Positions 7,301 to 31,116 of a DNA stretch of 31,116 nucleotides are shown piece by piece. The position numbers and the translations under genes were made by a program. Origin of the DNA: a virus (taxonomy: Duplodnaviria > Heunggongvirae > Uroviricota > Caudoviricetes). The stretch lies in IMG/VR virus record IMGVR_UViG_2690316344_000014. The stretch is one strand, 5' to 3'. Position 1 is the stretch's first letter; each line of letters begins with the position of its first letter. The notes under the pieces are model-generated. The model had not been told where the DNA came from. It did not search any database and saw only the letters and a list, made by a program, of their open reading frames with translations.

Positions 7301-7319
7301 TTAGTAAACAATTGGCATA

Positions 7320-9344: not shown

Positions 9345-9407
9345 TAATTATGCCGTGTTGATTTCCCAAAATCAAAATCGATAGAATTGCTCCTTCTTAA
9401 AACACTT

Positions 9408-10205: not shown

Positions 10206-10214
10206 ACTCTCACC

Positions 10215-10766
10215 CTACTTTATCTCATAAACTGGTGTTATCTCAGCGGTTGCGATTTTATTAGCATTAAGCATATAACCAACTAACGCTCCGCTGGAGT
10301 TAGAATCTACAGGAATCTTTTCAGTTTTTAGAGCCCATACTTTAAACTGGTAATGATGTGGTTTATCTCCTTTAGGAGGACATGCGCCACCAAACCCAGC
10401 ATAGCCAAAATCATTTCGGCCTTGAACAGCACCAGTCGGCAGTTTTGTTCCATCACGTCTCCCTGCATCAACGGGCAAATATGTTACTGTTGCTGGAATA
10501 TTAACAACAGTCCAATGCCACCAACCACTGCCTGTAGGTGCATCTGGATCATATACAGTTACGGCAAAGCTTTTGGTACCTTCAGGAACACCAGACCAGG
10601 TTAATGAGGGCGATGTATTACCACCTTCACACCCAAATCCAGAAAAGACATGAGACGTTGTAAGTTGCTCTCCTGTTTTTATTTCATTACTAGTGACCTG
10701 AAATGCTGCAGCCTGCGCAGAAAATGTTATGAATGCCAATACAGTTGAAACGATAAGTGTTTTCAT
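10215..10766 (-). CDS. ybcL: periplasmic YbcL-like protein (phosphatidylethanolamine-binding / Raf-kinase-inhibitor-like family)
   Basis: 183 aa with signal peptide MKTLIVSTVLAFITFSAQAAAFQV and a conserved PDAPTGSGWWHWTV motif. Confidence 0.85.
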   Translation of the reverse strand: MKTLIVSTVLAFITFSAQAAAFQVTSNEIKTGEQLTTSHVFSGFGCEGGNTSPSLTWSGVPEGTKSFAVTVYDPDAPTGSGWWHWTVVNIPATVTYLPVDAGRRDGTKLPTGAVQGRNDFGYAGFGGACPPKGDKPHHYQFKVWALKTEKIPVDSNSSGALVGYMLNANKIATAEITPVYEIK

Positions 10767-10982
10767 AAAAACCTCTTTGTTATGACCTATCGTTATTTTA
10801 TTTGATATTCCTTTATCTCATTATGCATAAAGGCGCAATGTTCATGCAAAAGCAATCACAATTGTACCCCCAACCCAATTATTTGCCACAATATACACAA
10901 AGCACATTGATACTATCTAAAAACTCTGCTTTATTATTAGTAATACCTACGAAAGTCGGTGTTATTTTTTAACCTACCATTC

Positions 10983-11032
10983 AAAATACGTGACATACAC
11001 CATTTTGCTCATAATAATTTGTCACGTATTTT
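10983..11032. promoter_or_regulatory. 13-bp perfect inverted repeat with 24-bp spacer in the ybcL upstream region
   Basis: AAAATACGTGACA (10983-10995) and TGTCACGTATTTT (11020-11032). Candidate operator; no U-run, so not an obvious terminator. Confidence 0.3.
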
Positions 11033-11230
11033 CAGTATTTGAATCTGCGACCAAGAGTTCTCACCTAACAAATGATTAAGATTGTATAGCTCATTTACTA
11101 CCCCAATACAGCCGTACAAAACTCGCTTGTGGGAGCAAACAAAGTAATTACCCATTAAGTTTCGTCAAAGATAATTAATTCTGTCTTGCACTTTATCACC
11201 ATAGCATAACTTAAAATCCGAGATCATTAT

Positions 11231-12757: not shown

Positions 12758-13013
12758 GGTGACACCTGCTAACGTATGCTTTTATAAACCTTAGTGGTGG
12801 GATATAATTTTTTGTTTATTTTTTATTTAAAAAGACAATTAAGGTCACATTATCTTGAATATACAACAATAATCGTATTGCAATTTTCTTACGCCATAAT
12901 CTTGAAAGCACAAAAGAATACATAAAAAATAAAGACATTAACAAAAAGCATAAAACGAGGCTCATATAAATATAAGAGCCTCCATATTTTAGTCGTTTAG
13001 AAACAAATTATTT

Positions 13014-13256
13014 TAATGTGGTGTGCTTCGTGACAATAAATTAATAATCAACACACCGGCACAAATCAACATCATGCCTATAATGGCTGGCAGGTCCAGC
13101 CGTTGGCCGAAAAATCCCCATGACAGTAAGCTAATCAGGACAATACCGACTCCTGACCAGATAGCATAAGCAATCCCTGTAGGAATATAAGCCAGCGTCT
13201 GAGCTAATAACCAGAATGATGCACAATAACAAATAATTGTACCAACAGATGGCCAT
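13014..13256 (-). pseudogene. emrE: emrE (small multidrug resistance transporter) 3' fragment, 5' end replaced by IS2
   Basis: Reverse-strand translation gives WPSVGTIICYCASFWLL ... ending LLSRSTPH-stop, the EmrE C-terminal ~80 residues. The reading frame breaks at the IS2 terminal repeat at 13257. Confidence 0.75.
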
Positions 13257-13966
13257 TGGATTTGCCCCTATATTTCCAGACACCTGTTATCACTTAACCC
13301 ATTACTGGCTTGCTGCCGTAGATATTCCCGTGGCGAGCGATAACCCAGTGCACTATGCGGATGCCATTCGTTATAATGCTCGAACGCCTCTGCAAGGTTC
13401 TTTGCTGCCGTTAACCCGTCTGGTTTGGGCATGACACTGATGTAGTCACGCTTTATCGTTTTCACGAAGCTCTCTGCTATGCCGTTACTCTCCGGACTCC
13501 GCACCGCCGTGCTCTTCGGTTCAAGCCCCAACATCCGGGCAAACTGCCGTGTTTCATTAGCCCGGTAGCATGAACCATTATCCGTCAGCCACTCTACTGG
13601 AGACGCCGGAAGCTCGTTGCCGAAGCGGCGTTCCACCGCTCCCAGCATGACGTCCTGTACTGTTTCACTGTTGAAGCCGCCCGTAGTGACCGCCCAGTGC
13701 AGTGCCTCACGGTCACAGCAGTCCAGCGCGAACGTGACTCGCAGTTTTTCTCCGTTATCACAGCGGAACTCGAACCCGTCAGAGCACCATCGCTGATTAC
13801 TTTCTTTCACAGCCACTCTGCCTGTATGTGCCCGTTTCGATGGCGGTACAGCAGGTTTTCGCTCAAGCAACAGCGCATTCTGGCGCATGATCCGGTAAAC
13901 ACGTTTGGCATTGATCGCAGGCATACCATCAAGTTCTGCCTGTCTGCGAAGCAGCGCCCATACCCG
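13257..13966 (-). mobile_element. IS2 partial copy (right end and 3' part of insD only, ~710 bp of ~1.3 kb)
   Basis: Reverse complement of 13257-13300 is the IS2 terminal sequence (...GGGTTAAGTGATAACAGGTGTCTGGAAATATAGGGGCAAATCCA). The InsD C-terminal 218 aa is intact. Similarity to IS2 stops after ...CGCCCATACCCG at 13966, where the lambda gam 3' end begins. Confidence 0.85.
13268..13924 (-). CDS. insD: IS2 transposase InsD, C-terminal fragment (IS3 family OrfB)
   Basis: [53 protein letters not shown] ... [24 protein letters not shown]. The N-terminal third of InsD and all of insC are absent. Confidence 0.85.
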
Positions 13967-14072
13967 TGCGTTTGATGACGATGTTGAGTTTCAGGAGCGC
14001 ATGGCAGAACACATCCGGTACATGGTTGAAACCATTGCTCACCACCAGGTTGATATTGATTCAGAGGTATAA
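13965..14072 (+). pseudogene. gam: gam 3' fragment (last ~35 codons of lambda Gam)
   Basis: Translates as [35 protein letters not shown]-stop, the lambda Gam C-terminus, directly upstream of bet. The 5' part is deleted at the IS2 junction. Confidence 0.8.
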
Positions 14073-14077
14073 AACGG

Positions 14078-14863
14078 ATGAGTACAGCACTCGCAACGCT
14101 GGCTGGGAAGCTGGCTGAACGTGTCGGCATGGATTCTGTCGACCCACAGGAACTGATCACCACTCTTCGCCAGACGGCATTTAAAGGTGATGCCAGCGAT
14201 GCGCAGTTCATCGCATTACTGATCGTTGCCAACCAGTACGGCCTTAATCCGTGGACGAAAGAAATTTACGCCTTCCCTGATAAGCAGAACGGCATCGTTC
14301 CGGTGGTGGGCGTTGATGGCTGGTCCCGCATCATCAATGAAAACCAGCAGTTTGATGGCATGGACTTTGAGCAGGACAATGAATCCTGCACATGCCGGAT
14401 TTACCGCAAGGACCGTAATCATCCGATCTGCGTTACCGAGTGGATGGATGAATGCCGCCGCGAACCATTCAAAACCCGTGAAGGCAGAGAAATCACGGGG
14501 CCGTGGCAGTCGCATCCTAAACGGATGTTACGGCATAAAGCCATGATTCAGTGTGCCCGTCTCGCCTTCGGATTTGCGGGTATCTATGACAAGGATGAAG
14601 CCGAGCGCATTGTCGAAAATACCGCATACACTGCAGAACGTCAGCCGGAACGCGACATCACTCCGGTTAACGATGAAACCATGCAGGAGATTAACACTCT
14701 GCTGATTGCCCTGGACAAAACATGGGATGACGACTTATTGCCGCTCTGTTCCCAGATATTTCGCCGCGACATTCGCGCATCGTCGGAACTGACACAGGCC
14801 GAAGCAGTGAAAGCTCTTGGATTCCTGAAACAGAAAGCCTCTGAACAGAAGGTGGCTGCATGA
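14078..14863 (+). CDS. bet: Red-beta single-strand annealing recombinase Bet
   Basis: 261 aa, [66 protein letters not shown]..., near-identical to lambda Bet over its full length. Confidence 0.95.
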
Positions 14864-15540
14864 CACCGGACATTATCCTGCAGCGTACCGGGATCGACGT
14901 GAGAGCTGTCGAACAGGGGGATGATGCGTGGCACAAATTACGGCTCGGCGTCATCACCGCTTCAGAAGTTCACAATGTGATAGCAAAACCCCGCTCCGGA
15001 AAGAAATGGCCTGACATGAAAATGTCCTACTTCCACACCCTGCTTGCCGAGGTTTGCACCGGTGTGGCTCCGGAAGTTAACGCTAAGGCGCTGGCCTGGG
15101 GAAAACAGTACGAGAACGACGCCAGAGCCCTCTTTGAGTTCACTTCCGGCGTGAATGTTACTGAATCCCCGATCATCTATCGCGACGAAAGTATGCGCAC
15201 CGCCTGCTCTCCCGATGGTTTATGCAGTGACGGCAATGGCCTTGAACTGAAATGCCCGTTTACCTCACGGGATTTCATGAAGTTCCGGCTCGGTGGTTTC
15301 GAGGCCATAAAATCGGCTTACATGGCCCAGGTGCAGTACAGCATGTGGGTGATACGAAAAGATGCCTGGTACTTTGCCAACTATGACCCGCGTATGAAGC
15401 GTGAAGGCCTGCATTATGTCGTGATTGAGCGGGATGAAAAGTACATGGCGAGTTTTGACGAGATGGTGCCGGAGTTCATCGAAAAAATGGACGAGGCACT
15501 GGCTGAAATTGGTTTTGTATTTGGGGAGCAATGGCGATGA
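14860..15540 (+). CDS. exo: lambda exonuclease (Red-alpha)
   Basis: 226 aa, [65 protein letters not shown]..., full-length match to lambda Exo. Start overlaps the bet stop. Confidence 0.95.
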
Positions 15541-15719
15541 AGCATCCTCACGATAATATCCGGGTAGGCGCGATCACTTTCGTCTACTCCGTTACAAAGC
15601 GAGGCTGGGTATTTCCCGGCCTTTCTGTTATCCGAAATCCCCTGAAAGCACAGCGGCTGGCTGAGGAGATAAATAATAAACGGGGAGCTGTATGCACAAA
15701 GCATCTCCCGTTGAGTTAA
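15531..15719 (+). CDS. lambda orf61-like small early protein
   Basis: 62 aa immediately after exo, the position of lambda orf61. Product unknown. Confidence 0.55.
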
Positions 15720-15883
15720 GAACGAGTATCGAGATGGCACATAGCCTCGCTCAAATTGGAGTCAGGTTTGTGCCAATACCAGTAGAAACAGACGAAGAAT
15801 TTCATACGTTAGCCGCATCCCTTTCACAAAAGCTGGAAATGATGGTGGCGAAAGCAGAAGCAGATGAGAGAGACCAGGTATGA
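15692..15883 (+). CDS. lambda orf63-like small early protein
   Basis: 63 aa, [63 protein letters not shown]. Position matches lambda orf63. Confidence 0.55.
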   Translation: MHKASPVELRTSIEMAHSLAQIGVRFVPIPVETDEEFHTLAASLSQKLEMMVAKAEADERDQV

Positions 15884-15959
15884 CAACCACTGAATGCATT
15901 TTTCTGGCAGCGGGCTTCATATTCTGTGTGCTTATGCTTGCCAACATGGGGCTTGTTCA

Positions 15960-16175
15960 ATGACACCTCAGCAAGAAAACGCCCTTCGCAGCATTGCCCG
16001 TCAGGCTAATTCTGAAATCAAAAAAGCCAGACAGCAGTTTCCGGATAAAAACGTCGATGACATTTGCCGTAGCGTACTGAAGAAGCACCGCGAAACGGTA
16101 ACGCTGATGGGATTCACACCGACTCATTTAAGCCTGGCGATCGGCATGTTAAACGGCGTCTTTAAGGAGCGATGA
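15960..16175 (+). CDS. lambda orf60a-like small early protein
   Basis: Internal start MTPQQENALRSIARQANSEIKKARQQFPDKNVDDICRSVLKKHRETVTLMGF...; position matches lambda orf60a. Confidence 0.5.
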   Translation: MTPQQENALRSIARQANSEIKKARQQFPDKNVDDICRSVLKKHRETVTLMGFTPTHLSLAIGMLNGVFKER

Positions 16176-16273
16176 ACATGAAAAGCAAAATCATCAGGGA
16201 GCTACAGGCTCCTTTTTTATTATTCGCATTCACCCTCAAGCGTATTAACCAACAATTCAGGGATTAATGGAAG

Positions 16274-16492
16274 ATGGCAGACATCATTGATTCAGCATCA
16301 GAAATCGAAGAATTACAGCGCAATACAGCAATAAAAATGCGTCGTCTGAACCACCAGGTTATATCTGCCACTCATTGTTGTGAGTGTGGCGATCCCATAG
16401 ATGAACGAAGACGCCTGGCCGTTCAGGGTTGTCGGACTTGTGCAAGTTGCCAGGAGGAGATCGAACTTAAGAACAAACAATGGGGATTGTGA
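16274..16492 (+). CDS. TraR/DksA-family C4 zinc-finger protein (lambda Orf73-like)
   Basis: 72 aa with CxxC-x17-CxxC (CCECGDPIDERRRLAVQGCRTCASC), the TraR/DksA C4-type zinc-finger layout. Phage homologues of this family are known to act on host RNA polymerase. Confidence 0.65.
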   Translation: MADIIDSASEIEELQRNTAIKMRRLNHQVISATHCCECGDPIDERRRLAVQGCRTCASCQEEIELKNKQWGL

Positions 16493-16539
16493 TGGCCTCA
16501 AAGCAGCAAATTTCAACATCGTCCAACTGAGGTGTAAAA

Positions 16540-16818
16540 ATGTTCAGAATCATTTTTCCTAACACCTGGTACGTCGACCACCACGGCACTCCCTGCAAAA
16601 TCCTGCGTTCTACCCACAACAAAGTTCACTACATCCGAAAAGGCAGAACATGTATCGCCAGCATGTTCCGCTTTAATCATGACTTTGAACCTGTGAATAA
16701 AGCTGATGCAGATCGGATAGCAGAAGAGATCGAAACGGCAGAACACATTAAGAAGTTACGTGACATGCGTTCAAAAAGCAGAGGTAACCATGGAATCATA
16801 CAGCCTCACACTCGATGA
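16540..16818 (+). CDS. small Cys/His-rich early-left protein (possibly Ea8.5-like)
   Basis: 92-aa ORF between the TraR-like gene and xis, with several His/Cys residues. Assignment is tentative, from position and size only. Confidence 0.4.
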   Translation: MFRIIFPNTWYVDHHGTPCKILRSTHNKVHYIRKGRTCIASMFRFNHDFEPVNKADADRIAEEIETAEHIKKLRDMRSKSRGNHGIIQPHTR

Positions 16819-17140
16819 GGCCTGTCAGTTTCTCAAGATATCCAGACCTACCGCTACCAACTGGATACGAACAGGCCGCCTACAGGCAACACGCAAAGAC
16901 CCCACTAAACTAAAATCTCCTTACCTCACAACACGACAAGCCTGCATTGCGGCGCTTCAGTCTCCGCTGCATACTGTCCAGGTGAGCGCGGGTGATGGCA
17001 TAACAGAGGAAAGAAAATGTCACTCTTCCGCAGAGGTGAAATATGGTACGCCAGTTTCACATTGCCGAACGGTAAAAGATTTAAACAGTCTCTTGGAACA
17101 AAGGACAAAAGGCAGGCGACAGAACTCCATGACAAGCTAA
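16790..17140 (+). CDS. xis: excisionase (Xis), HTH DNA-binding
   Basis: Internal start with a good SD (GAGGTAACC-ATG): [37 protein letters not shown]. Immediately upstream of int, but overlaps it by ~120 nt, so the true 3' end is uncertain and the gene may be frameshifted. Confidence 0.55.
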
Positions 17141-18180
17141 AGGCTGAAGCATGGCGGGTCAGCAAACTTGGTGAAATACCTGATATAACGTTCGAGGAAG
17201 CGTGTGTCAGGTGGCTTGAAGAGAAAGCACATAAAAAATCACTGGACGATGACAAAAGCCGGATCGGATTCTGGCTTCAACATTTCGCAGGAATGCAACT
17301 AAGAGACATTACTGAATCAAAAATTTATTCAGCAATGCAGAAAATGACGAACCGGCGTAATGAGGAAAACTGGAAACTCAGGGCAGAAGCATGCAGAAAA
17401 AAAGGGAAACCTGTTCCAGAATACAAGCCAAAACCAGCGTCTGTTGCAACGAAGGCTACGCATCTTTCATTTATAAAAGCCCTACTAAGAGCCGCAGAGC
17501 GTGAATGGAAAATGCTGGATAAGGCACCAATTATTAAAGTGCCTCAACCAAAGAATAAACGGATCCGCTGGCTGGAGCCCCATGAAGCACAAAGGCTGAT
17601 TGATGAATGTCCGGAGCCATTAAAGTCTGTTGTTGAATTTGCACTGGCAACAGGCTTAAGACGCTCGAACATCATCAACCTTGAATGGCAACAAATAGAT
17701 ATGCAGCGCCGGGTGGCATGGATAAACCCGGAAGAGAGTAAATCAAACCGCGCAATCGGCGTTGCGCTGAATGATACTGCATGTCGCGTATTGAAAAAAC
17801 AAATCGGGAATCATCACCGTTGGGTATTTGTGTACAAGGAAAGCTGTACCAAACCAGACGGAACGAAAGCGCCAACAGTAAGGAAGATGCGGTATGACGC
17901 AAACACAGCCTGGAAAGCGGCGCTGAGACGGGCTGGTATTGATGATTTCAGATTTCACGACTTGAGACACACCTGGGCAAGTTGGCTGGTTCAAGCCGGA
18001 GTCCCGTTGTCAGTGTTACAGGAAATGGGAGGCTGGGAGTCTATCGAAATGGTTCGTCGATATGCTCACCTTGCACCTAATCACCTTACCGAACACGCAC
18101 GGCAAATAGACTCGATCCTGAACCCATCGGTCCCAAATTTGTCCCAGTCAAAAAATAAGGAAGGTACTAATGATGTGTAA
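17017..18180 (+). CDS. int: prophage tyrosine integrase (DLP12 IntD-like)
   Basis: 387 aa with a C-terminal catalytic region ([42 protein letters not shown], i.e. HxxR ... Y). Ends 15 nt before the tRNA-Thr fragment and is convergent with it. Confidence 0.9.
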
Positions 18181-19414: not shown

Positions 19415-20305
19415 ATGGATTATAAAAATAAGTTAGTTGATGCATCACCAAAATTAAACAACCCTCAACTATTGGCTATAATATACTTAATACCTTTTGG
19501 ATACTTGATTGTAGAAAACCCATTATGGCTAGAAAATATATACATTGCCGCTCCAATTTTCCTATCATCTATAGCTTTATTAACCAGTGTATACATAGGA
19601 TATCGTGATTTATTAAATAAAGTATTTAATAATGCAGTAGTTAAATGGGGCGTAACTGGCTTTACATATTCCGTATGCTTATGGATCGCAAAGTTTAAGC
19701 TTGACATAGCTTATGGTATAGTCCCAGAAAACCTTAATTACTCGACATTAGCTTATGCTTTCATGCTCTCATTTCCAATAGGGGCAATGATTTGTGCAAT
19801 TACAGTCTATATATACATATTTTTGCGAGATGTATCCCCAGCAAAAATAGTAATATCCTCTATGATTTCAGTATATATTGGAAGCTTGGCTCAACATCAT
19901 ATACAGGTGAACAATCTTCCTGAAAAAATAATATTAATAGGACTTATAATTATGGTCCCCTATAACATGGTCAATTTAGCTAGTTCATTAGTTATTAAAA
20001 GGAAATTTAATTTTAATCGTTTAGTATCAGGCTTATCCCTTTTTGCTGTGTCAGTTGCTCTTTTTATTATTAGCATGACAGCAATGAAATACATTGAAAG
20101 ATTTCAAGAAAAGTTTATTTTTCTCGATGCAAGAACATCTACGACATGTGGTAGCTCAGAAAGCAAATCTCTTTATATTGAAAAAAATGAAAATCAGTGT
20201 TATAAAATATCAGGAAATAAATTCTCGGAGTTAAGACTAACTCTTGTAGATAAAAACATCTTGAATATAAATAATAAAGGCACTTCAACTTATGAACAAA
20301 AATAA
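19415..20305 (+). CDS. hypothetical polytopic inner-membrane protein
   Basis: 296 aa, AT-rich codon usage, multiple long hydrophobic segments (LLAIIYLIPFGYLIV, AAPIFLSSIALLTSVYIGY, LIGLIIMVPYNMVNLASSLVI, LSLFAVSVALFIISM). No family recognised. Confidence 0.6.
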   Translation: MDYKNKLVDASPKLNNPQLLAIIYLIPFGYLIVENPLWLENIYIAAPIFLSSIALLTSVYIGYRDLLNKVFNNAVVKWGVTGFTYSVCLWIAKFKLDIAYGIVPENLNYSTLAYAFMLSFPIGAMICAITVYIYIFLRDVSPAKIVISSMISVYIGSLAQHHIQVNNLPEKIILIGLIIMVPYNMVNLASSLVIKRKFNFNRLVSGLSLFAVSVALFIISMTAMKYIERFQEKFIFLDARTSTTCGSSESKSLYIEKNENQCYKISGNKFSELRLTLVDKNILNINNKGTSTYEQK

Positions 20306-20539: not shown

Positions 20540-20752
20540 CTAGTGAGCTATTTTATAGTCCCTTAATGCATTTTTAAGTAACTCCGTTTGCTCATCAGCA
20601 TCATCATAATTATAAATTCCCGTAGCAGAATAATACTCTTCGATGCATAGAATATTTATCAATGGTTCACAAATCTCTTTAATAAACTCCTTGTTGTTAT
20701 CGGCAAAAATAATTTTTATTCCTTCCAAAACAAAGCTATTATAATCAGCCAT
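20540..20752 (-). CDS. hypothetical small acidic protein
   Basis: 70-aa ORF 70 nt downstream of trbL on the same strand. No recognisable family. Confidence 0.4.
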   Translation of the reverse strand: MADYNSFVLEGIKIIFADNNKEFIKEICEPLINILCIEEYYSATGIYNYDDADEQTELLKNALRDYKIAH

Positions 20753-20782
20753 TATCCACCTCCTTACAGGTGTTTAGTGGAA

Positions 20783-20814
20783 GCGTCAGTTAACGTTACC
20801 GCGCTAACTGACGC
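20783..20814. repeat. hairpin: 10-bp inverted repeat with 12-nt loop between trbL and the 70-aa ORF
   Basis: GCGTCAGTTA (20783-20792) and TAACTGACGC (20805-20814). No flanking U-run. Confidence 0.3.
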
Positions 20815-20821
20815 GCCTAAA

Positions 20822-22225
20822 TCAAGATTTTTTACTGCCAGTTAAACTATCACCCTCAAACTCATCCTGTTCGTGGTTAGTCTGACGATCGGCTGTGTGT
20901 TTACGTATTTGATTCGCTATTTCCCCACCAACGGTCTGTTGTCTTCGGATAGTATTAGTACTTCCCTTCATCATCTGATACTCCGAAGCTCCGTTAGACA
21001 ACCCGCTCGCCATGTGAGAAGCCATGCGGCCAGCTCGTGAGAATGATGAAGCAAACCCCTGGCTTCCTCCGCTGACGCTACCTGTATTACTCCCTGCAGA
21101 AGAACCACCGGAACCGCCTGATGGTTGTCCTCCAGAAGTATCTACGGAACCGGTATCTTCCCCTCCGCCAAATCCTCCACCTGAACCACCTTTATCACCA
21201 GAACCAGATTCTTCGGCCATCGCCGCTTGTGCAGATTCAAATGCTGCTTTTAGAGCGGAAGCACCACCACTGACTTGAGCTGTAGCACTTATTGCCATTG
21301 CCCCAGCGCCACTGATTGCAGTAGTAGCAGCGCCAGTAATCATACCTGCTCCAAAACCACCGATCCCTTGTAAGGACGCTCCTCCAACAACGCCTGATAA
21401 CAACAACGGTAATTTATTCGTCAATACTAAAAGAATAATTGACGCCAGAAGTAAAACAATAAGACTATTAAGATCAGGAATATCATTTTTAATAATAGAA
21501 AAATACTGATCTATAAATGATTGCCCAATCCCAATGATTAATGTCATCGTAAATAACTGAATACCAATCGATAATACTGTGCGTAAGTAATTTATTGCTA
21601 TATCAGAAGTCCATTTCGAGCCACCAAACCCAAGCAAAATAACTCCTGCATAACACAACACCCATGCAGAAACTAACATTATTAGCATATTTATCGCGAT
21701 AAGCGCCATTACTACTAATACTATTATCGCGACGGTTATCATAATGGTCGAAATCATTGGAGACCAAATTGATGCTGCTGAACTGACCTTTGTTAATATC
21801 ACAAATGCCATATCCACTATGCTGGAGGGTGAAATACCAGTACTTGTTCCTAAAGCATTTGCTGCAAGTTGTCTCATTGAGTTAATTATAGATTGTGATA
21901 TGGCTGGGCCGTTGATTAAAAGATAATAAAAAAAACCAATCACGGCAAAAAAACGAACTATTTCTGCAAGTGCACTGATTAAACCTTCCCCTTGCATCGC
22001 CAACATACCAAATGTCCAAACCATACTTATTAATACCACCCCCCAGAAGAGCCAATTTGCATAATCACCAATTACTAATGACCATGTGCTGGCTACTTGC
22101 TGAAACTTATCTAATAACGTATCAAGTAATCCGCTACTATCTAATTGACCAGCATAAGCATTTACAGAAAACAAAAAAAACATTCCTAAAAAAGTGAGCT
22201 TGCTTACTATTCTCATAATTACCAT
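20822..22225 (-). CDS. trbL: P-type conjugative transfer protein TrbL/VirB6
   Basis: 467 aa. N-terminal signal plus multiple transmembrane helices, then a C-terminal Gly/Ser-rich low-complexity tail (GGSGGGFGGGEDTGSVDTSGGQPSGGSGGSSAGS), typical of TrbL. Confidence 0.8.
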   Translation of the reverse strand: MVIMRIVSKLTFLGMFFLFSVNAYAGQLDSSGLLDTLLDKFQQVASTWSLVIGDYANWLFWGVVLISMVWTFGMLAMQGEGLISALAEIVRFFAVIGFFYYLLINGPAISQSIINSMRQLAANALGTSTGISPSSIVDMAFVILTKVSSAASIWSPMISTIMITVAIIVLVVMALIAINMLIMLVSAWVLCYAGVILLGFGGSKWTSDIAINYLRTVLSIGIQLFTMTLIIGIGQSFIDQYFSIIKNDIPDLNSLIVLLLASIILLVLTNKLPLLLSGVVGGASLQGIGGFGAGMITGAATTAISGAGAMAISATAQVSGGASALKAAFESAQAAMAEESGSGDKGGSGGGFGGGEDTGSVDTSGGQPSGGSGGSSAGSNTGSVSGGSQGFASSFSRAGRMASHMASGLSNGASEYQMMKGSTNTIRRQQTVGGEIANQIRKHTADRQTNHEQDEFEGDSLTGSKKS

Positions 22226-22392
22226 TCTCGCTTAGGGCTAGGATTGTTATTGCCACGCAGGGCACATTTATCGTAGTTATGTTCGTTCAATTTATTCTCT
22301 GGCGTCGATAAACAATCTTCATCTTTTTTATCGCAAGAGCATAGAATTAATGAAATTATTAGAATAAAAATGACCAAAAGTTTATCTTTCAT
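22219..22392 (-). CDS. small putative lipoprotein in the TrbK (entry-exclusion) position
   Basis: Found by hand (57 aa, below the ORF-track cut-off): MKDKLLVIFILIISLILCSCDKKDEDCLSTPENKLNEHNYDKCALRGNNNPSPKREW. Hydrophobic N-terminus followed by Cys; sits between trbJ and trbL as trbK does in IncP plasmids. Confidence 0.45.
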   Translation of the reverse strand: MKDKLLVIFILIISLILCSCDKKDEDCLSTPENKLNEHNYDKCALRGNNNPSPKREW

Positions 22393-22403
22393 TCAGCTCT
22401 CCC

Positions 22404-23198
22404 TCACCAAATTCGCTTCGGGCTTGGTGTGTTCTCGCCAGCTAACGCTTTTTCATCAGCGACTATTTGTTGGGCTTCTTTATCAGCCTCAGCCTGTGCC
22501 AGTGTTGCTGCAGCGTTTTGCTGAGCTACCAGAAGCGAGCGGATTTGCAGCAACTGGTTCGTTTGAGCACTGGCAAGCTGGTTAGCGGCCTGAATAGCTT
22601 CCATTTGCCCTTGTGCGCCGGTTGCCTGCGTTTGTAAATCTGCAAGGTTGTCAGCATCGCTTTGCAGTGTTTCCTGCTGTTCGTCAAGAGCCTTAAATAC
22701 AGCGTCATTGGCCTTTTTACGTGCCTCAGAGCTGTTCTGTTCAGCTTTGCGCAGTGCGCTAATTTCATCCGCAGTACATTCAACATTACTGTTAAAGCAC
22801 GGTGATGAGCGGTAGTAATTCACGTCCTGATAACGTTTCAGATATGAATCAAGACTCCCGGCCTGGTTTTTGTAGTAATTTAGGGTGTCCTGCGCCTGCA
22901 ACAATTTGTTGATGGTCGAATTGGCCTGATCCCAGATATAGGCTGCAGGTGCGACTGTATTTTTGAGCATGTTTTCATACTGCTGCAGCTGCGTCTGGTA
23001 CTGCTGGATCTGTTTTGCCACAGCCTGAACGTTGTTGACTGCGCTGATTGTGGTCTGCACCACATTAGTACCATCGATTACAGGGATACCGGCTGTCGCC
23101 GGTAATGCCATGATGGACGCCAGGAAGGAAGCAGCTAATGATTTTTTAGCTGCTAAAATCCCTCTCAGTGATGAAAATACTCGGAGCATTAACTTCAT
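22404..23198 (-). CDS. trbJ: P-type conjugative transfer protein TrbJ (VirB5-like)
   Basis: 264 aa, signal peptide then a coiled-coil-rich Q/A-rich sequence (QIQQYQTQLQQYENMLKN ...). The trbJ-trbK-trbL order is conserved. Confidence 0.75.
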   Translation of the reverse strand: MKLMLRVFSSLRGILAAKKSLAASFLASIMALPATAGIPVIDGTNVVQTTISAVNNVQAVAKQIQQYQTQLQQYENMLKNTVAPAAYIWDQANSTINKLLQAQDTLNYYKNQAGSLDSYLKRYQDVNYYRSSPCFNSNVECTADEISALRKAEQNSSEARKKANDAVFKALDEQQETLQSDADNLADLQTQATGAQGQMEAIQAANQLASAQTNQLLQIRSLLVAQQNAAATLAQAEADKEAQQIVADEKALAGENTPSPKRIW

Positions 23199-23279
23199 TT
23201 GCCCACCTCAAATTTAACTGATTATTAATATTGAAAACTCGTACTTTTAACAAATACAGATATTTAGGAAACCATAAAT

Positions 23280-23645
23280 TTATTTATTCAAGATTCTATC
23301 CATAATATTTCTTAGTTCTTGTCTGGTTGATTCTATTTTAGCAAGCAACGTTTTTATCAATGAGGGTGAAAAATCAACTGTGCGTGGATCGTTAGCTAAC
23401 CACAGTTTAAGTAACCCACCAAGTCGACCAAGATCAGCATTTACTCGGCTAAGCTCTACAACCTGTTCAATATCTACCATAGACTCAACCTGATAACCCA
23501 TTGCTACTTTACGAATGAAACTCGCTACACTTAAGCCAGATGCTTCTGCATTATCCTGGATTTGCGCTTTTTCATCTGGCAAACAATAAACTTTAATTGG
23601 TGTACTATTTTTTCTAGTCTGAGAAACGGTCATATCATTCTCCAT
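23280..23645 (-). CDS. traJ: relaxosome accessory oriT-binding protein, TraJ/MobC family
   Basis: 121 aa with PIKVYCLPDE and DLGRLGGLLKLWL motifs resembling RP4 TraJ / the MobC family. Sits immediately beside an RP4-like oriT. Confidence 0.75.
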   Translation of the reverse strand: MENDMTVSQTRKNSTPIKVYCLPDEKAQIQDNAEASGLSVASFIRKVAMGYQVESMVDIEQVVELSRVNADLGRLGGLLKLWLANDPRTVDFSPSLIKTLLAKIESTRQELRNIMDRILNK

Positions 23646-23660
23646 ACAGGCGGTAGCCGA

Positions 23661-23765
23661 TCAGCCTCGCAGAGCAGGACTCCGTTGAGCAGCTCAGCTG
23701 CGAATAAGGGAAGGTAAAGTAGAAGCACCGTTTACGGTGGGCCTACTTTACATATCCTGCCCTAC
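23661..23765 (+). other. origin of transfer (oriT), IncP/RP4 type, with TraJ-binding inverted repeat and nic site
   Basis: CAGCCTCGCAGAGCAGGACTCCGTTGAGCAG ... GCGAATAAGGGAAGGTAAAGTAGAAGCACCGTTTACGGTGGGCCTACTTTACATATCCTGCCC closely parallels the RP4 oriT as I recall it from mob vectors. Inverted repeat GTAAAGTAG (23714-23722) / CTACTTTAC (23743-23751), then the ATCCTG/C nick consensus at 23754-23760. Confidence 0.8.
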
Positions 23766-24906: not shown

Positions 24907-25164
24907 ATGAGGACAATAAATGCTGCACCTTCAACTGTCGGAGAGATTTTATACGAAGAATTCTTGAAACCATTGGATATGCCTCCCGCAAGACTTGCTG
25001 AACTGATGGATACATCATATGAAAAAATTTGGGAAATAATTAAAAATGAGCGAAATATAACTCTTGAAGAAGCTATTCAACTCTCGATAATTTTCAATAC
25101 AGATGCATCTTTTTGGGTGAAACTGCAAGAGCTACATGAGGCATGGTTTAATAAACAAAAGTAA
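24907..25164 (+). CDS. HigA-like XRE-family HTH protein (antitoxin-like / transcriptional regulator), apparently orphan
   Basis: 85 aa, MRTINAAPSTVGEILYEEFLKPLDMPPARLAELMDTSYEKIWEIIKNERNITLEEAIQLSIIFNTDASFWVKLQ, the HigA/VapI-type pattern. No HigB/RelE-like ORF found on either side. Confidence 0.7.
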   Translation: MRTINAAPSTVGEILYEEFLKPLDMPPARLAELMDTSYEKIWEIIKNERNITLEEAIQLSIIFNTDASFWVKLQELHEAWFNKQK

Positions 25165-25397: not shown

Positions 25398-25782
25398 CCA
25401 CTCTGGCCTGAATGGAACATCCTACATTAGACGTTAAGATCTTACATCTAATTATCCGAAAATACTAATGGATGCGTAGTTGCATTTGACCTGACCGCCC
25501 ATTTGCGGGTTACTCTACCATCGCCAATAAAGTCCGGCTACTCGAATTCGGAAGTATTAGGCTATAGGTCATAAACCTGAATAACTGCTATGTGCTGAAG
25601 CGGATAAAGCTGACATCATTATGCACCAATCAACTCGGTGTAAGTCAGCTAGTTGGTGATGGAGTGACTTGTCAATAGTTGTAGCCCCTACCAGTGCATC
25701 GGAGATTCTTGAGTGTAACCTTAGTTGCTTTAATCAGAAGTAAAGGAAACGTACTATGAAAATCAGTACTCTTAATCAAGAG

Positions 25783-25812
25783 ATCCCCCGTTCTCTCACG
25801 GAAAAGGGGGAT
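25783..25812. terminator. hairpin just 3' of the 420-aa gene
   Basis: ATCCCCC-n16-GGGGGAT beside the stop at 25820; T-rich sequence follows on the plus strand. Confidence 0.3.
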
Positions 25813-25819
25813 TGAATTT

Positions 25820-27082
25820 TCAAATTTTCTTTTTAGCGATAAAAATACAGTAAAAATATAAGGTTTTGATAATGTGATTAATGCTGTGCACCTCGCGAAA
25901 TAATAGTAATAGCTTCCTCATAAAAGACATGAAACTAAGTTCGTTGTATTTAGTGCGTTCCATTCCTTCCTTAGCGAAATAGTAGGTTATCATCTGAATT
26001 GACTCTTTATATTCATATTTATAATGTGCAATGCCATTTCGCAGCTTGTTGTCTAAAGCATTGAGATCAACTATATAAAAGCTATCATCCAATCCGCTTA
26101 TTTTCGTGCCTAAATCAACGTTTGCATATTCGTTGAGACTAGAAAAACCTTTAATTAAATCGCCTTTTTTATTTAGTCTTACTGAATCGTCAAAAATATT
26201 ATGATCTCCGCGTTTTAATAAGTTATTCAATCCGGCCACAATTATTAATTGCCGAGAGAATACTTCAGATAAGTCTTTGTAAAAATTGTTACAGTCATCA
26301 AATTCGGCAGTTGAAACTCGAGCAGGAATCATTGATAAATCTACGTTTTTATCATAATCATAGTAAAGCGCTGGGCGTGAAGGGAGTTCAAAGTCAAGCA
26401 TTTTGGGATATAGGCTTAAACAATCGAAATGCAAACTTTTCAGAAACCCACTTCCAATAATATCATCTAAAAATTTATTTAGCTGTTTTGGATGATTTTT
26501 CTGAATATAATGAAGAAATTGTGGCATTTTTTCACTAATTTCAGCATTATGTGCATGTATTGTAAAGGGAAATGACATTGCAGAGGTTGCTGTATAAAGT
26601 GCGGAAAGGATATCTTGTATTTTTAGCGAACGAGGTTTTTTCAGAGTAGGTAATTCTTTCATTAGGTTACTGAAAGTATTGTAATTTCCTTGTTTGTATT
26701 GAGTAATGAGTCGCTGGAGCTTATCGCGATGTTTATAAATATAATTCATTCCATTTAGATGTGCGTTCAGCATTAAGTATTTTTCATGACCTATTGCACT
26801 TGTTATTTTTAAGAATGCTGTTTTTCCTATTTCGTATTTTCCAAAGCCTACGGGAAAATCTAAATGCAAATCGATGAATGGATTTGTTGTGCCAAAGTCA
26901 TTGCTTTCTACAGTTTCCGCACCGTTAAATACAGGCTCTCCCTCCCCAAGAGTAAACGATATATTATTCTCACAATTTGGACATGCAAATTGGAACGGTT
27001 GTATGTCTCGATTAGACATACCTATTCTTGTATCAATGACCGTGTCACATACAAGGCATTTAAATTGCTGTAAAAAATTCAT
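25820..27082 (-). CDS. hypothetical protein with N-terminal zinc-ribbon (CxxC ... CxxC), 420 aa
   Basis: MNFLQQFKCLVCDTVIDTRIGMSNRDIQPFQFACPNCEN: Cys9/Cys12 and Cys34/Cys37. AT-rich; no family recognised by eye. Confidence 0.6.
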   Translation of the reverse strand: MNFLQQFKCLVCDTVIDTRIGMSNRDIQPFQFACPNCENNISFTLGEGEPVFNGAETVESNDFGTTNPFIDLHLDFPVGFGKYEIGKTAFLKITSAIGHEKYLMLNAHLNGMNYIYKHRDKLQRLITQYKQGNYNTFSNLMKELPTLKKPRSLKIQDILSALYTATSAMSFPFTIHAHNAEISEKMPQFLHYIQKNHPKQLNKFLDDIIGSGFLKSLHFDCLSLYPKMLDFELPSRPALYYDYDKNVDLSMIPARVSTAEFDDCNNFYKDLSEVFSRQLIIVAGLNNLLKRGDHNIFDDSVRLNKKGDLIKGFSSLNEYANVDLGTKISGLDDSFYIVDLNALDNKLRNGIAHYKYEYKESIQMITYYFAKEGMERTKYNELSFMSFMRKLLLLFREVHSINHIIKTLYFYCIFIAKKKI

Positions 27083-27329
27083 AAATATTTTATTAATCCT
27101 ATAAATTATAAGTTAAGTATTAGTCTTTTATCTACAAACCAAAGCCACTTTACTACTTTACCTAACTGCACTTTAAACAATCATAAGTTCTTTTTTTTTA
27201 AAAAGGTAGTCCAAAGATACCAATTTATTCAATATCAACGAGAATTCGAGACTCCTATGTGAGTAAAAAACTATGAGCTTCATGCCATGCTTTCAATAAA
27301 TGTCTTCAGTTACCCATAAATTTACTGGA

Positions 27330-27857
27330 TTAACAATTTGTAGTCTTTCCGACCAAATTACCGCGCGCAGTGTGACCCCATACTTTAGATGTCACCTTAT
27401 CTCTTTCCACTAGTTGTTTACGGTGCATCAAATCGGCAAGCAGTATTGAAACAAAGAACATGAATTTTGTTTTGGGAGTATTAGGAACATCTTTGGGTCC
27501 AAGCCAAGGTAGCTGCTCCAGTTGATTTTGTATTTTGGGTGTTGCGAAGCTAACACCATTCCAACTATGCCCAAAAGCATTTCTAATGCTACGCAGTGTG
27601 TTTAGTTCTTTGTATTCGTGTTCCATTATCAGTCCTAACGCATATGCTAAGCCTGTTCTAGCAGCAAAAGATGATAAAGGCGCTGTTGCACCATTCAGTA
27701 GACCTTTAGCTACTTTGTCATTTAACAGGTGAGCCTGGATGATCTCGGATAACCACTCATCGAAAATGGATGCTGCTATTAGAACAGAGCCACGATCTGA
27801 TTCTTTATTTAGTTCGGACAAAAATTGACCGAGTTCAATTTGGGTTTTATCACTCAC
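27330..27857 (-). CDS. HEPN/MtlR-like protein with Rx4H motif (candidate RNase-type toxin or abortive-infection protein)
   Basis: 175 aa. The N-terminus (GSVLIAASIFDEWLSEIIQAHLL) resembles the MtlR/HEPN helical fold; RNAFGH (R92-x4-H97, nt 27567-27584) fits the HEPN Rx4-6H motif. Confidence 0.5.
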   Translation of the reverse strand: MSDKTQIELGQFLSELNKESDRGSVLIAASIFDEWLSEIIQAHLLNDKVAKGLLNGATAPLSSFAARTGLAYALGLIMEHEYKELNTLRSIRNAFGHSWNGVSFATPKIQNQLEQLPWLGPKDVPNTPKTKFMFFVSILLADLMHRKQLVERDKVTSKVWGHTARGNLVGKTTNC

Positions 27858-28371
27858 AGACTCTGGAACTCCTTTCTCAAAAATTCAACATGAGGACGCT
27901 TCGGTCGCACATCAATCTTAACCATTAGATTATGAAATTGTGTTAGGTCTGGGTCAAACTATGAACAAAAACAGAAAAAATTATTGTGACGTTATTTAGG
28001 GGGACCTACAATGACACATTTTAAACAATTACTTTAATATCAATAAATTGGATCGTATTACTGTGTTCCTATTATTGGTTTAGCTCAGCTTGTCGCTCAC
28101 AGCGGACCTTCAGCTCGATAGCAAGTCCGCTCCGTTGGAGTGCCAGATGCGCTCTAAATTTGATGGCTAGTATTGAAGAGATACTTGGGCATCATGGTTA
28201 TGGTGTAAATACCGTCTGTGATACCCGCAGAGGTGCTAGGTTTAGGCACTGAGAAGGATACATTGAACATGAATTCAGAGTGATGTAACACAAGTCATAG
28301 AAAATTAGTGATTTATATTGAAAAGGGGGCTATTTTATTAAAGCAAGGCCGCCTTTAGGCAGCCTCTTATT

Positions 28372-29049
28372 TTACATGTAGATATTCATTAAACTGTCAA
28401 ATAGTCTTTTGGTTAACTCTTTTTCCGCTCGTGCTTCGATTTGAGCCATACCATTTCGGAAGAGTTTTAATTTACCGCTAAATTCTTGGTCATGAATAGT
28501 ACATGTCAATCGATCAAGTCTCATTTTTTTGTGAATAAGCTCATCTTTGAAATATTTTTTAAGATCGCTGGTACTATTAATTTGCATCTTGGCAAGAGCA
28601 AATTCAGCAACTTGAATTTGAGATACATCTAGTTGCACTATATTAAGTGTCAACTCTGTGTTTAAAGAACTGAACCATATGAACGGGTCAATCTCAATCT
28701 CTTCTAAGCTGGTACCAAGACCAAGGTTTTTTACCAGTGCCTGAGCAAATGGTTTAAGTGTTCTCGGTGGATTATCAATAAGTAAAACTGGGGTGTATTG
28801 TTCGTCAAAACTGAAAGATGTTACTCTATATTCAATGCGTTCAACAGCGGTACTGTTGCCGTATAGATTACTTATTCTATCTTCGCTAATTATCTTTTCG
28901 ATGAAGCGAGCGTGAAAATGAGATGTTCGTGATTTATCAAATATAAACCCTTTCCCTTTCTCTTCAGTAAAAGGATCACGCATGAGTTTTTCAACTGTTT
29001 CACTAGTAGTGAAACGATTGTTGAGTTTAATCCATTTAAATTTTTTCAT
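28372..29049 (-). CDS. hypothetical protein, gene C of a coupled three-gene operon
   Basis: 225-aa ORF whose start overlaps the last 14 nt of the upstream gene. AT-rich; no recognisable motif. Confidence 0.6.
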   Translation of the reverse strand: MKKFKWIKLNNRFTTSETVEKLMRDPFTEEKGKGFIFDKSRTSHFHARFIEKIISEDRISNLYGNSTAVERIEYRVTSFSFDEQYTPVLLIDNPPRTLKPFAQALVKNLGLGTSLEEIEIDPFIWFSSLNTELTLNIVQLDVSQIQVAEFALAKMQINSTSDLKKYFKDELIHKKMRLDRLTCTIHDQEFSGKLKLFRNGMAQIEARAEKELTKRLFDSLMNIYM

Positions 29050-30115
29050 GCTCTTCCACCTTTTTACCCGTCACGATATTATAGGCGTCTGCTGCTGACT
29101 GTTCAATTAGTAGGCTGATTTTCTTCTTTTCAACTTCATTTGCTGCACGAATAGTAACATTGTATCCACTACCTTTTTGGTTATTGATTCCTTTAATTTG
29201 ATAGGAAAAATCAGAGCAATTTTCTGAATCCTTAAAGAAAGCTTCAACCAAAATCCTGTCTCCTATTCCGTTTTTAGGTTTAGCAGACCAAGCAATTCTT
29301 CCAATATAGTATCCTTTGTTATGTAGTTGGGTGAAAATAGCAGAACTATTAACAGAATCACCTTTTAGAACCGCTTTTTTTACGAATCCTGTCTCGATTT
29401 CTTCTTCTTCCTCGTCATCACCTTTGCTTGTTGAACGGTTAAGCTCTACATTAGTAACGTCGTCAATTTCATATCCACTCAAGCCGCCCATAACCTCTTG
29501 AAAAAACTGACTTCTTAGCGCTGGTGTAGGAATCGCTTCTAAAGAAATTTCAAACTTTTCAACATCAACGGATTTAATCTTTGACAACTCTTTTTGTAAT
29601 AGTGTTATTACATCTTTAGCCTTTTGGTTCTGAGGCATACGAATATCAACATTATCGTTATTTACAGTAAGATCAATCTTGATGTTTCGGTTGTCTATCT
29701 GACGCAATGCTGTTCTGGACAAGTCTACTTCTTGGTAGTTTACCTCGATTGCTAAAGACCCATCTTTTTTCGCAGTGATTTTTACTGTTTCACCAGAGCC
29801 AGTGGCTAATTTTCTTTTAACTAACTCTGCTGCTGTTTTTAATTCCGTCTGAGAGGATGATGCTTGAAGCTTGACGCTAGTTATACTCTCTCTTTTATCA
29901 TAAGTTTGTACAAGTTCCTTAATAGAATCTAGATCACTATATCCCTGAGGTAGTTTGCAAACCTCTTCAATTAATTCCTCCTTTGTTAAGTCTTGAGCAA
30001 CAATAATACCTTTCCGTAATAATATCTCGCGTAATCTTGCGATGGTAATTCGTTTATGATGAAGTGCATCATATATATTTTTGTCAGTTGCGAAATAAAT
30101 ATTCATGTTATTCAT
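29036..30115 (-). CDS. hypothetical protein, gene B of a coupled three-gene operon
   Basis: 359 aa with an acidic stretch (GDDEEEEEIE). Its ATG overlaps the upstream stop by 1 nt (TAATG). No family recognised. Confidence 0.6.
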   Translation of the reverse strand: MNNMNIYFATDKNIYDALHHKRITIARLREILLRKGIIVAQDLTKEELIEEVCKLPQGYSDLDSIKELVQTYDKRESITSVKLQASSSQTELKTAAELVKRKLATGSGETVKITAKKDGSLAIEVNYQEVDLSRTALRQIDNRNIKIDLTVNNDNVDIRMPQNQKAKDVITLLQKELSKIKSVDVEKFEISLEAIPTPALRSQFFQEVMGGLSGYEIDDVTNVELNRSTSKGDDEEEEEIETGFVKKAVLKGDSVNSSAIFTQLHNKGYYIGRIAWSAKPKNGIGDRILVEAFFKDSENCSDFSYQIKGINNQKGSGYNVTIRAANEVEKKKISLLIEQSAADAYNIVTGKKVEEHEKI

Positions 30116-31116
30116 TAACGTTGCTCCATGCCTATAGCTTCAAGACTATATTGAATTACCATTGCAGCTGTTTTTTCGAATGCAACTTTTGAAAACAAAC
30201 GTTCACTTTCGCCTGATAGCCAATGGGCACTATATTTTTGCTTTGCTCTTTCAAAGTGATGAATGGAGTCTTCATGCGGATTTATATGACAATGTCTAAT
30301 TTTTATTCTTTTTGCATCAGTCAGTATTTGATAATTAGAAAGCATGTCAAGGAAATAGATGAACTCATCTTCACTATTCCCTGGTTGATTATAATAAATT
30401 ACGTAACCACTATCTTCTTTTTCACCCATCCAATCGAATTCTTCATGCTTTATTATTATGAATGGTGATGTTAAGACCTCAACAGTAGCTGCAGTCTTAT
30501 TGTTGATAGGATGTTTTATCCTAGTTAGTGCTAAGTCTGGGTAATAGAAATAGTACAAATCTGGTTGAGGTAAAGCCCCGGTACCAATAAGCATTTTAAT
30601 ATCTGATGCTATATTTATCATATCGGATATTTTGAATGGATCTAAAAGGTGTAATTTTATGTTTGGGGGGCATTTTATTATTTCAGGGTCGACTTTCTTC
30701 ATCACGGATGAGTAAAAATCCTTGTCATAAAGGTTGTCATGATTATAGAGAAATAATAAACCTCGAACTTTGTAACCTAATGACTCATCCCGCACATATC
30801 GTTTACACCACTGTTGGCTAATGTTGGCGCATTCTGTAGCGAGAGCTAAAGAAGAAAGTGCACCTTCTACCATCCCTTTGCCGATACTACTTTGAGCATA
30901 GCTTTTGAGGTCTGTGTTCAAGTACACAATCTCTTCTTCATAAGGATCGGTATAGTAAAACACCACATCGCTAGGATGTGTTTTTTTGTCATGAGCCTCT
31001 AGGTCGCAATCCCAGTTCATATCTTGACTAGTAGCTCGTTGCCATTTGAAAATTTTAAAAATATCTTGGGTTATCTTATTTGCAACATGCTGTATTGAAG
31101 AGGTCTCTCCGCCCAT
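30115..31116 (-). CDS. hypothetical protein, gene A of a coupled three-gene operon; possible PD-(D/E)xK nuclease-like motif; start at or beyond the window edge
   Basis: At least 333 aa. The ORF reaches the last base of the window, where an ATG lies. A hydrophobic strand ending in Asp (DVVFYYTD57) is followed by EIVYLNTD69-L-K71, a pattern like restriction-endonuclease-fold motifs II/III. Confidence 0.55.
   Translation of the reverse strand: MGGETSSIQHVANKITQDIFKIFKWQRATSQDMNWDCDLEAHDKKTHPSDVVFYYTDPYEEEIVYLNTDLKSYAQSSIGKGMVEGALSSLALATECANISQQWCKRYVRDESLGYKVRGLLFLYNHDNLYDKDFYSSVMKKVDPEIIKCPPNIKLHLLDPFKISDMINIASDIKMLIGTGALPQPDLYYFYYPDLALTRIKHPINNKTAATVEVLTSPFIIIKHEEFDWMGEKEDSGYVIYYNQPGNSEDEFIYFLDMLSNYQILTDAKRIKIRHCHINPHEDSIHHFERAKQKYSAHWLSGESERLFSKVAFEKTAAMVIQYSLEAIGMEQR

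Follow-up and report, generated by a model that had tools for sequence, protein, structure and literature searches.

A stand-alone MtlR-like HEPN protein in a decayed integrative element of Escherichia coli, a candidate single-gene defence ribonuclease

What is the role of a small, all-helical protein with an intact HEPN motif when its gene stands by itself, downstream of a three-gene defence operon and with no antitoxin gene at its side? The question is raised by a gene for a 175-aa protein near the right end of a 31,116-nucleotide stretch of DNA ("the window" below always means this whole stretch), which an initial annotation made from the letters alone had described as HEPN/MtlR-like and had connected with toxins and abortive-infection effectors, either as a separate single-gene module or as an effector of the upstream operon under its own control. 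The reading that best explains the evidence gathered here is that of a solo HEPN ribonuclease of an MtlR-like/DUF4145-like clade. The features on which the argument draws are the following:

27330–27857, minus strand: coding sequence of the 175-aa stand-alone MtlR-like HEPN protein, starting with GTG; the stop codon is counted in the end coordinate 27330.
27567–27584, minus strand: codons of the HEPN Rx4H motif R92-N93-A94-F95-G96-H97, the predicted catalytic site (from sequence, translation and conservation).
27792–27803, minus strand: codons of E19-S-D-R22, the second conserved motif, at the turn between helix 1 and helix 2 (from the alignment of 81 homologues).
27869–27874, minus strand: Shine-Dalgarno-like AAGGAG, 11 nt 5' of the GTG (read from the sequence).
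27929–27957, minus strand: sigma-70-like promoter candidate, TTGACC-17 nt-CATAAT, about 70 nt 5' of the start (consensus scan, 10 of 12 matches).
28372–31116, minus strand: Rst_3HP operon Hp1-Hp2-Hp3, upstream of the 175-aa gene (PADLOC E 5e-176, 2e-160 and 3e-80).
25820–27082, minus strand: 420-aa gene, with a zinc-ribbon-like N-terminus, followed by a helical body that holds an invariant RNGIAH (from sequence conservation).

The 175-aa gene is real and under strong purifying selection, with dN/dS values of 0.08–0.14 in comparisons with three homologues (dS 0.4–0.9). The open reading frame first proposed at 27330–27857 is also the gene called by RefSeq, where the identical CDS appears as WP_021570025.1, "MltR family transcriptional regulator", in identical islands of E. 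coli chromosomes. From stop to stop, the frame holds merely nine extra codons 5' of the GTG, and close homologues have their start codon at the same position, as ATG or GTG. The region of the promoter candidate is conserved in two of the related contexts described below (L010 and L011) and not in the other (L004, from Pantoea); the candidate is a consensus match only, of a kind that is locally no commoner than expected from shuffled sequence, and it suggests that the gene may have a promoter of its own. That the product is an all-helical small protein was borne out by the AlphaFold2 model (mean pLDDT 83, pTM 0.77), which is built of seven helices with no strand, becomes helical at residue 3 and confines disorder to the last 20 residues, and whose four-helix up-down core matches solved HEPN domains. 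The sole cysteine of the protein is its C-terminal residue. RNAFGH, at residues 92–97, is its single Rx4H in a scan of the translation, and is intact as the initial annotation had it.

Searches of several databases converge on an HEPN-fold protein of an MtlR-like branch. Pfam, which had been proposed as a check, gave a match to MtlR (PF05068) over residues 23–126, above the gathering score (27.8 bits against 25.2, E 2.7e-6), and NCBIfam MltR (NF008234) was matched with 30.6 bits, far under its curated cutoff of 149. PADLOC returned no match for the protein at E≤1, the PD-T7-4 model included, the PHROG match was PHROG 22031, of "unknown function", and a sequence search of the PDB matched only the MtlR proteins of E. 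coli (E 3e-4) and Vibrio (E 6e-3). It is from these results together that we derive the placement, and the MtlR family has itself been assigned to the HEPN superfamily (PMC3710099). Among 81 aligned homologues, 72 match the MtlR model of Pfam and 28 match DUF4145, and other HEPN models are matched as well. That the protein carries an intact HEPN domain is, in our opinion, very probable.

The conservation of the motif was followed from close relatives to the whole family. A word-indexed search found 15 relatives of the 175-aa protein, and R89, R92, N93 and H97 are kept in all of them except a frameshifted E. coli allele. The profile made from these relatives was compared exhaustively with 1.84 billion cluster representatives and drew 13,791 matches at E≤1e-3, 10,489 at E≤1e-10 and 294 at E≤1e-30; R[NDH]x3H is present in 149 of the best 150 of the 13,791 matches, overwhelmingly as RNxF(A/G)H. 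In the alignment used to score conservation (81 homologues, 25–44% identical to the query), the only invariant positions are R92, N93 and H97, and E19, R22 and R89 are conserved in at least 90% of the sequences. The initial annotation had named a lack of conservation of R92 and H97 among homologues as evidence against its reading; both residues are invariant. Going by amino-acid frequencies, we estimate that about one fifth of proteins of this size would contain a bare Rx4H by chance. RNAFGH is non-random here, because its R, N and H are invariant in homologues, motifs of the RNxF(A/G)H type are near-universal in the best matches, and it aligns with the Rx4H motifs of E. coli MtlR and of HepS, a solo HEPN protein discussed below.

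A polar residue after the arginine, here N93, is typical of active HEPNs, and many HEPN families have a second conserved motif of acidic and basic residues (PMC3710099), of which we infer that E19-S-D-R22 is the counterpart. In the MtlR family, the catalytic motif is kept in only about 60% of the members and lost in about 40%; some members are predicted to be active RNases, and the mannitol repressors are probably non-catalytic (PMC3710099). Judged by its sequence, the 175-aa protein belongs to the motif-retaining part of this family, and the motif makes RNase activity a reasonably likely prediction. The motif by itself is no proof of catalysis, because the regulator E. coli MtlR also keeps the R...H pair. 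Relatives with two tandem HEPN copies (P0142, P0157 and P0173) give a hint, and only a hint, that the protein may function as a dimer.

The gene lies in DNA of foreign composition. GC content is 33–37% across 24–31 kb of the window, its right third; E. coli chromosomal DNA has about 51% GC. To the left of the 420-aa gene come an orphan HigA, an excisionase-like gene, TraJ with a traJ-II RNA, TrbJ, TrbL, PtaRNA1, a VbhA antitoxin and an integrase; the island is a decayed integrative conjugative element, with a lambdoid prophage remnant on its left. A 2.7-kb segment of the window is present in 12 of 5,426 complete E. coli genomes, always in the chromosome and beside tRNA-Ser, the 175-aa gene itself is present in 11, and the E. 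coli island variants that have no 3HP or no 175-aa gene are IS1 or IS4/Tn10 deletions. A near-identity DNA search of plasmid and phage collections gave no match. Close relatives of the gene (at least 84% identity) were found in three further contexts: in a lambdoid prophage (L011), beside Hachiman HamA/HamB (PADLOC E 8e-106 and 0) and an AbiJ_NTD3 protein, with Lom and a J tail gene on the other side; in L010, flanked by ParDE and a DUF4238 protein; and in Pantoea vagans (L004), by itself at the end of a prophage, next to genes for Lom and tail-fibre assembly. In the window, the 175-aa gene is best understood as cargo of an AT-rich defence cluster in a decayed integrative element. It is only for the four close contexts that an enrichment in defence islands is seen. 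With its 10,489 clusters at E≤1e-10, the wide family covers many phyla, and in our survey of 74 genome loci from many phyla, with the four nearest genes taken at each, the 140 immediate neighbours match 131 different Pfam families, none of them more than twice; few of them match defence models (TIR, PD-T7-1, PD-T7-5, cytosine methylase, type I REase and PDC-S45), and most of the immediate neighbours in the wider family have ordinary housekeeping functions, gyrA, metH and ferrochelatase among them.

Could the gene be an accessory effector of the upstream Rst_3HP operon, under separate transcriptional control? The two lie on the same strand in the same AT-rich block, and the distance of 514 nt given in the initial annotation is exact (28372 − 27857 − 1 = 514), but the genes occur apart in both directions. 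Among nine 3HP operons in viral contigs, only one, in a 100%-identical island, is accompanied by the 175-aa and 420-aa genes, and both genes are absent from six others with 1.9–5.3 kb of downstream flank, one of them with a 95% identical Hp2; conversely, the 175-aa gene is found without 3HP in L004, L010 and L011, and persists in E. coli strains that have lost 3HP through IS1. We rejected it as a part of 3HP on these grounds, and hold an accessory role to be very improbable. Thus, of the two arrangements originally envisaged, the separate single gene stands and the effector of the operon does not. The other way in which the gene could have a partner is as an addiction or toxin-antitoxin toxin with an unrecognised antidote, be it a small protein, an RNA, or the 420-aa protein as the other half of a two-gene system, and this we consider unlikely. 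The 175-aa and 420-aa genes do travel together in two elements, as one 2.4-kb block with 82.6% identity to the L011 prophage, but each is also found without the other: the 175-aa gene at L004 and L010, and the 420-aa gene, with no MtlR-like gene in reach, at L012–L019, in settings that include Gabija and a prophage integrase. Their homologue counts differ widely (15 versus at least 359), and an hhalign comparison of the two families (R348, N349 and H353 are invariant in that of the 420-aa protein) aligned the motif alone, with E 0.11. The 420-aa gene was rejected as an obligatory partner accordingly. No MNT nucleotidyltransferase is encoded near the gene in the window, nor does one occur among the 25 families shown for the 140 neighbours at the 74 loci, where there is no recurrent neighbour family either (the largest cluster has 3 of 271 neighbour genes).

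As for an RNA antidote, which the initial annotation had suggested looking for in 27858–28371, Tandem Repeats Finder detected no arrays in 25500–28600, Rfam gave nothing credible (its single match at E≤1 is a spurious miRNA inside the CDS), and a repeat search gave just two short chance pairs. The DNA common to the four contexts amounts to the ORF plus about 26 nt, with upstream conservation ending by about 130 nt, and in Pantoea by about 26 nt. With no repeats, no Rfam family and unconserved flanks, an RNA antitoxin in that interval or downstream was rejected. An antisense ORF of 65 codons (27535–27732, plus strand) is open in four homologues; over 78 family genes, the median length in this antisense register is 53 codons versus 67 in synonymous-codon shuffles, and we rejected the ORF as chance, its openness being not above these controls. 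Other small flanking or overlapping ORFs are broken in homologues and were rejected as well. The 175-aa gene is therefore a stand-alone unit: the early observation that no antitoxin-like small ORF is adjacent proved correct, and the overlapping or antisense partner that it had been proposed to look for was not found above shuffle controls.

The RefSeq name raises an alternative of another kind, in which the protein would be a non-catalytic MtlR-type adaptor or regulator that uses the HEPN fold as a protein- or RNA-binding scaffold to regulate genes of the element or of the host. The mannitol repressor, with HPr, EII-Mtl and CRP as its binding partners, is the precedent; by structure and by sequence, the 175-aa protein is best matched by the non-catalytic regulators MtlR and YggD; and E. 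coli MtlR keeps R and H at the aligned positions and yet is a regulator (PMC6763467, PMC13421365), in line with the acceptance of non-catalytic MtlR members in the HEPN survey (PMC3710099). MtlR and YggD (PDB 6kcr, 3brj, 3c8g; PF05068) are repressors of the mannitol operon, however, whereas the 175-aa gene is rare and horizontally mobile. Neither mtlA nor mtlD is near the gene in its foreign AT-rich island, where it is surrounded by 3HP, the 420-aa gene, HigA and trb remnants, and its other close contexts have prophage or defence neighbours and not an mtl operon. The HPr-binding acidic residues of E. coli MtlR are E108, E111, E118, E119, D123, E133 and E140 (PMC6763467; the MtlR numbering is from the residue list of that paper, checked against the aligned sequence), and they align to K83, N86, N93, A94, S98, K108 and Q115, so that none of the seven is acidic here and two are charge-reversed to lysine. 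The segment R117-E-E-L-N-H122-D, once the active site, lies within the HPr interface of E. coli MtlR, in contrast to the canonical R-N-x3-H of the 175-aa protein. The motif of MtlR/YggD reads RE...H, or is lost as in Vibrio MtlR, whereas it is RN...H, with an invariant N, in the family of the 175-aa protein; this invariance also differs from the loss of the motif in some 40% of the canonical family. As the protein falls far short of the NCBIfam cutoff, has no mtlA/mtlD nearby and has lost the HPr surface, it is not a canonical mannitol repressor, and we regard the more general regulator reading as improbable. An active RNase with a function outside defence, serving the host or the element in the processing or turnover of RNA or acting in stress-induced growth control, would agree with a wide family that spans many phyla and is often located among housekeeping genes, unlike a typical defence island. 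For the gene considered here, such a function is quite unlikely: it has a patchy distribution (11 of 5,426 E. coli genomes), its four close contexts are all prophage or island, it has no conserved partner or locus, unlike housekeeping RNases, and two phage-encoded structural relatives exist.

Among HEPN systems with a partner, the MNT-HEPN type II/VII toxins (SO_3166, HEPT; PDB 5yep, 7ae2) are, to our knowledge, always paired with an adjacent MNT antitoxin, and the 175-aa locus differs from them in having no MNT gene. AbiF/AbiD (Abi2) differ too, AbiF being larger and ncRNA-bound (PDB 8vz6 title), whereas the 175-aa gene has no tandem repeats or conserved upstream RNA. Closer in their organization are two solo HEPN defences. 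HepS ("HEPN Solo", STM14_3211 from the Gifsy-1 prophage of Salmonella Typhimurium; PDB 9oij/9oik; Nature 2026) is constitutively made and non-toxic; its tetramer buries the R100/H105 sites and is opened by the siphovirus J tail-tip protein, after which the enzyme cuts tRNA anticodon loops, and its gene has no conserved neighbours and is frequently prophage-borne (PMC13043305). RAZR (PD-T7-4; Nature 2026) is a zinc-finger-DUF4145 HEPN that is activated when it assembles around rings of phage portal or Gp77, and its substrate is ssRNA (PMC13017515). Both are kept inactive by their own oligomeric state (PMC13043305, PMC13017515). As both are single-gene defences, the remark in the initial annotation that a missing antitoxin is unusual for a HEPN toxin is outdated. 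Like HepS, the 175-aa protein is a small stand-alone HEPN (HepS has 212 aa) with a canonical R-N-x3-H, has no partner or antitoxin gene, and is encoded on prophages and mobile elements, with accessory genes around it; a profile alignment of the two families has a shared "ALGL...IRNxxAH" core. It matches HepS only marginally, at 15% identity and a profile E of 0.019, which suggests a different sequence family, and its MtlR-like family is nearer to MtlR than to HepS. Searches with a HepS fragment, by tblastn against the phage collection and by word-indexed protein search, gave no match. With RAZR, an abortive-infection RNase that has no antitoxin, it shares the single-gene HEPN organization and the DUF4145 branch, to which the 28 of 81 DUF4145-matching family members attest; RAZR, however, binds its trigger with an N-terminal Cys4 zinc finger and has an Rx7H (R146/H154), whereas the 175-aa protein has no zinc finger and an Rx4H, and the zinc-ribbon-plus-helical layout belongs to its 420-aa neighbour. 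The protein lies outside the RAZR sequence family and probably outside that of HepS.

The precedents of HepS and RAZR lead us to propose an inactive oligomeric RNase that would be switched on by a phage protein. The 175-aa protein would be made from its own promoter and form a dimer or a higher oligomer, with two Rx4H motifs (R92, N93 and H97) paired into a composite, metal-independent RNase site. At rest this site would be inactive, and no antitoxin would be needed for that reason. The trigger would come from the phage, most likely as a structural protein or another late one; it would bind the oligomer directly, reshape it and open the site, and the opened enzyme would then cut cellular RNA, in tRNA anticodon loops or other single-stranded RNA, with the result that translation stops and the infection is aborted. 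We infer the oligomeric auto-inhibition, the phage trigger, the cleavage of RNA and the abortive outcome by analogy with these two systems. We would give an even chance to the 175-aa protein being such a self-contained, normally inactive and phage-triggered HEPN RNase like HepS or RAZR, and a role in defence as such seems to us about equally balanced; a direct trigger of the HepS kind is a more tentative and somewhat doubtful proposition. It is also possible that the 420-aa zinc-ribbon/RNGIAH protein is a second solo HEPN-like defence gene, in which case the locus could be a stack of three independent defences that target RNA or nucleic acids.

Part of this picture is already known, as defence HEPN RNases and catalytically intact MtlR members were predicted in 2013, and solo HEPN Abi proteins are experimentally established. 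According to a rough estimate, with bit scores scaled to the library, some 10^4 clusters are closer to the 175-aa protein than canonical MtlR is, and this large family is systematically labelled as a transcription regulator. Conceivably, though we think it rather unlikely, this phylum-spanning family of solo MtlR-like HEPN proteins, which on this view would comprise about 10,000 clusters defined at 50% identity, all with an invariant RNxF(A/G)H and no partner gene, could constitute an unrecognised class of sensor-effector RNases with triggers of their own, parallel to HepS and RAZR. If the protein were a regulator, the finding would be an ordinary one. If instead the proposal is true, the annotation "MltR family transcriptional regulator" hides a large family of single-gene abortive-infection RNases. 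For E. coli, one, and perhaps two, candidate defence genes would be added to the rare Rst_3HP island. The only solo HEPN defences we know of for which the trigger has been worked out are HepS and RAZR (both 2026), and a third family, distinct in sequence, small and easily cloned, would add a new pair of trigger and sensor with which the generality of this sensing principle could be tested.

The island of the window in which the MtlR-like HEPN gene (175 aa) resides also holds a complete anti-phage operon, the remains of a conjugation system and two antitoxin genes; a lambdoid prophage remnant occupies other parts of the window. The features are as follows (window coordinates):

420-3003 (- strand) and 6033-18180: lambdoid prophage remnant
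19415-20305, + strand: gene of a 296-aa protein without a Pfam match
20746-20818, + strand: PtaRNA1 antisense RNA
23663-23762, - strand: traJ-II RNA
24907-25164, + strand: HigA-family antitoxin gene (TIGR02607, E 2e-18)
28372-31116, - strand: Rst_3HP anti-phage operon, complete (Hp1/Hp2/Hp3)

Within the island, trbL, trbJ and traJ are flanked by the PtaRNA1 and traJ-II RNAs (20746-23762), and these three genes and two RNAs are the only surviving parts of a P-type conjugation system, which makes the island a decayed conjugative element. The HigA-family antitoxin of the island is an orphan: no HigB-like toxin ORF adjoins its gene. Directly downstream of the 296-aa gene, and overlapping it, lies a gene annotated in RefSeq as a VbhA-family antitoxin, of which the 296-aa protein may be the toxin partner, either a divergent Fic-type protein or a toxin of another kind. 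In the Rst_3HP operon, Hp1 carries the annotation PD-(D/E)XK nuclease domain protein in part of the RefSeq records, and the start of its ORF is exactly the final base of the window. Insertion sequences are now eroding the island, as seen in E. coli (records H9-H12; L002, L003): in three strains IS1 stands in place of the operon from about window position 28271 onward, and in one strain IS4/Tn10, carrying tetB, replaces everything past the neighbouring 420-aa gene.

The prophage remnant contains the Nu1 and gpA terminase genes, a porin, an AraC regulator, a serine recombinase, an IS3-type integrase, RecT/YqaJ and a tyrosine integrase. The C-terminus of the gpA ORF (residues 573-586) gives an odd match to the Phage_fiber repeat, which suggests that this ORF is the product of a fusion or rearrangement.

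A 37-nt stretch (28078-28114) is conserved, at 86% identity, at positions 7634-7670 of L011, a lambdoid prophage that carries a close relative of the gene; in these two otherwise unrelated contexts it lies 220-370 nt upstream of the 175-aa gene, at a different distance in each. This stretch could be left over from an ancestral sequence, or could serve as a small regulatory or att-like element. It bears some resemblance to a tRNA D-arm; ARAGORN found no tRNA.

The E. coli homologue P0006 (142 aa) is an allele of the same gene with a frameshift after about residue 87 and has lost the RNAFGH motif, and is therefore a naturally inactivated copy. Three relatives of the family among the library matches (P0142, P0157 and P0173) have two tandem MtlR-like HEPN domains per chain, consistent with an intramolecular HEPN dimer, and in P0142 and P0173 the motif of the second copy is partly degenerate (RIPFAH and RNESSH, respectively). 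The same fold was found by Foldseek in two BFVD proteins, A0A223W0X1 from Agrobacterium phage Atu_ph08 (E 3e-6) and A0A076YJ58 from Mesorhizobium phage Lo5R7ANS (E 6e-4), and members of this family therefore also occur in bona fide phage genomes.
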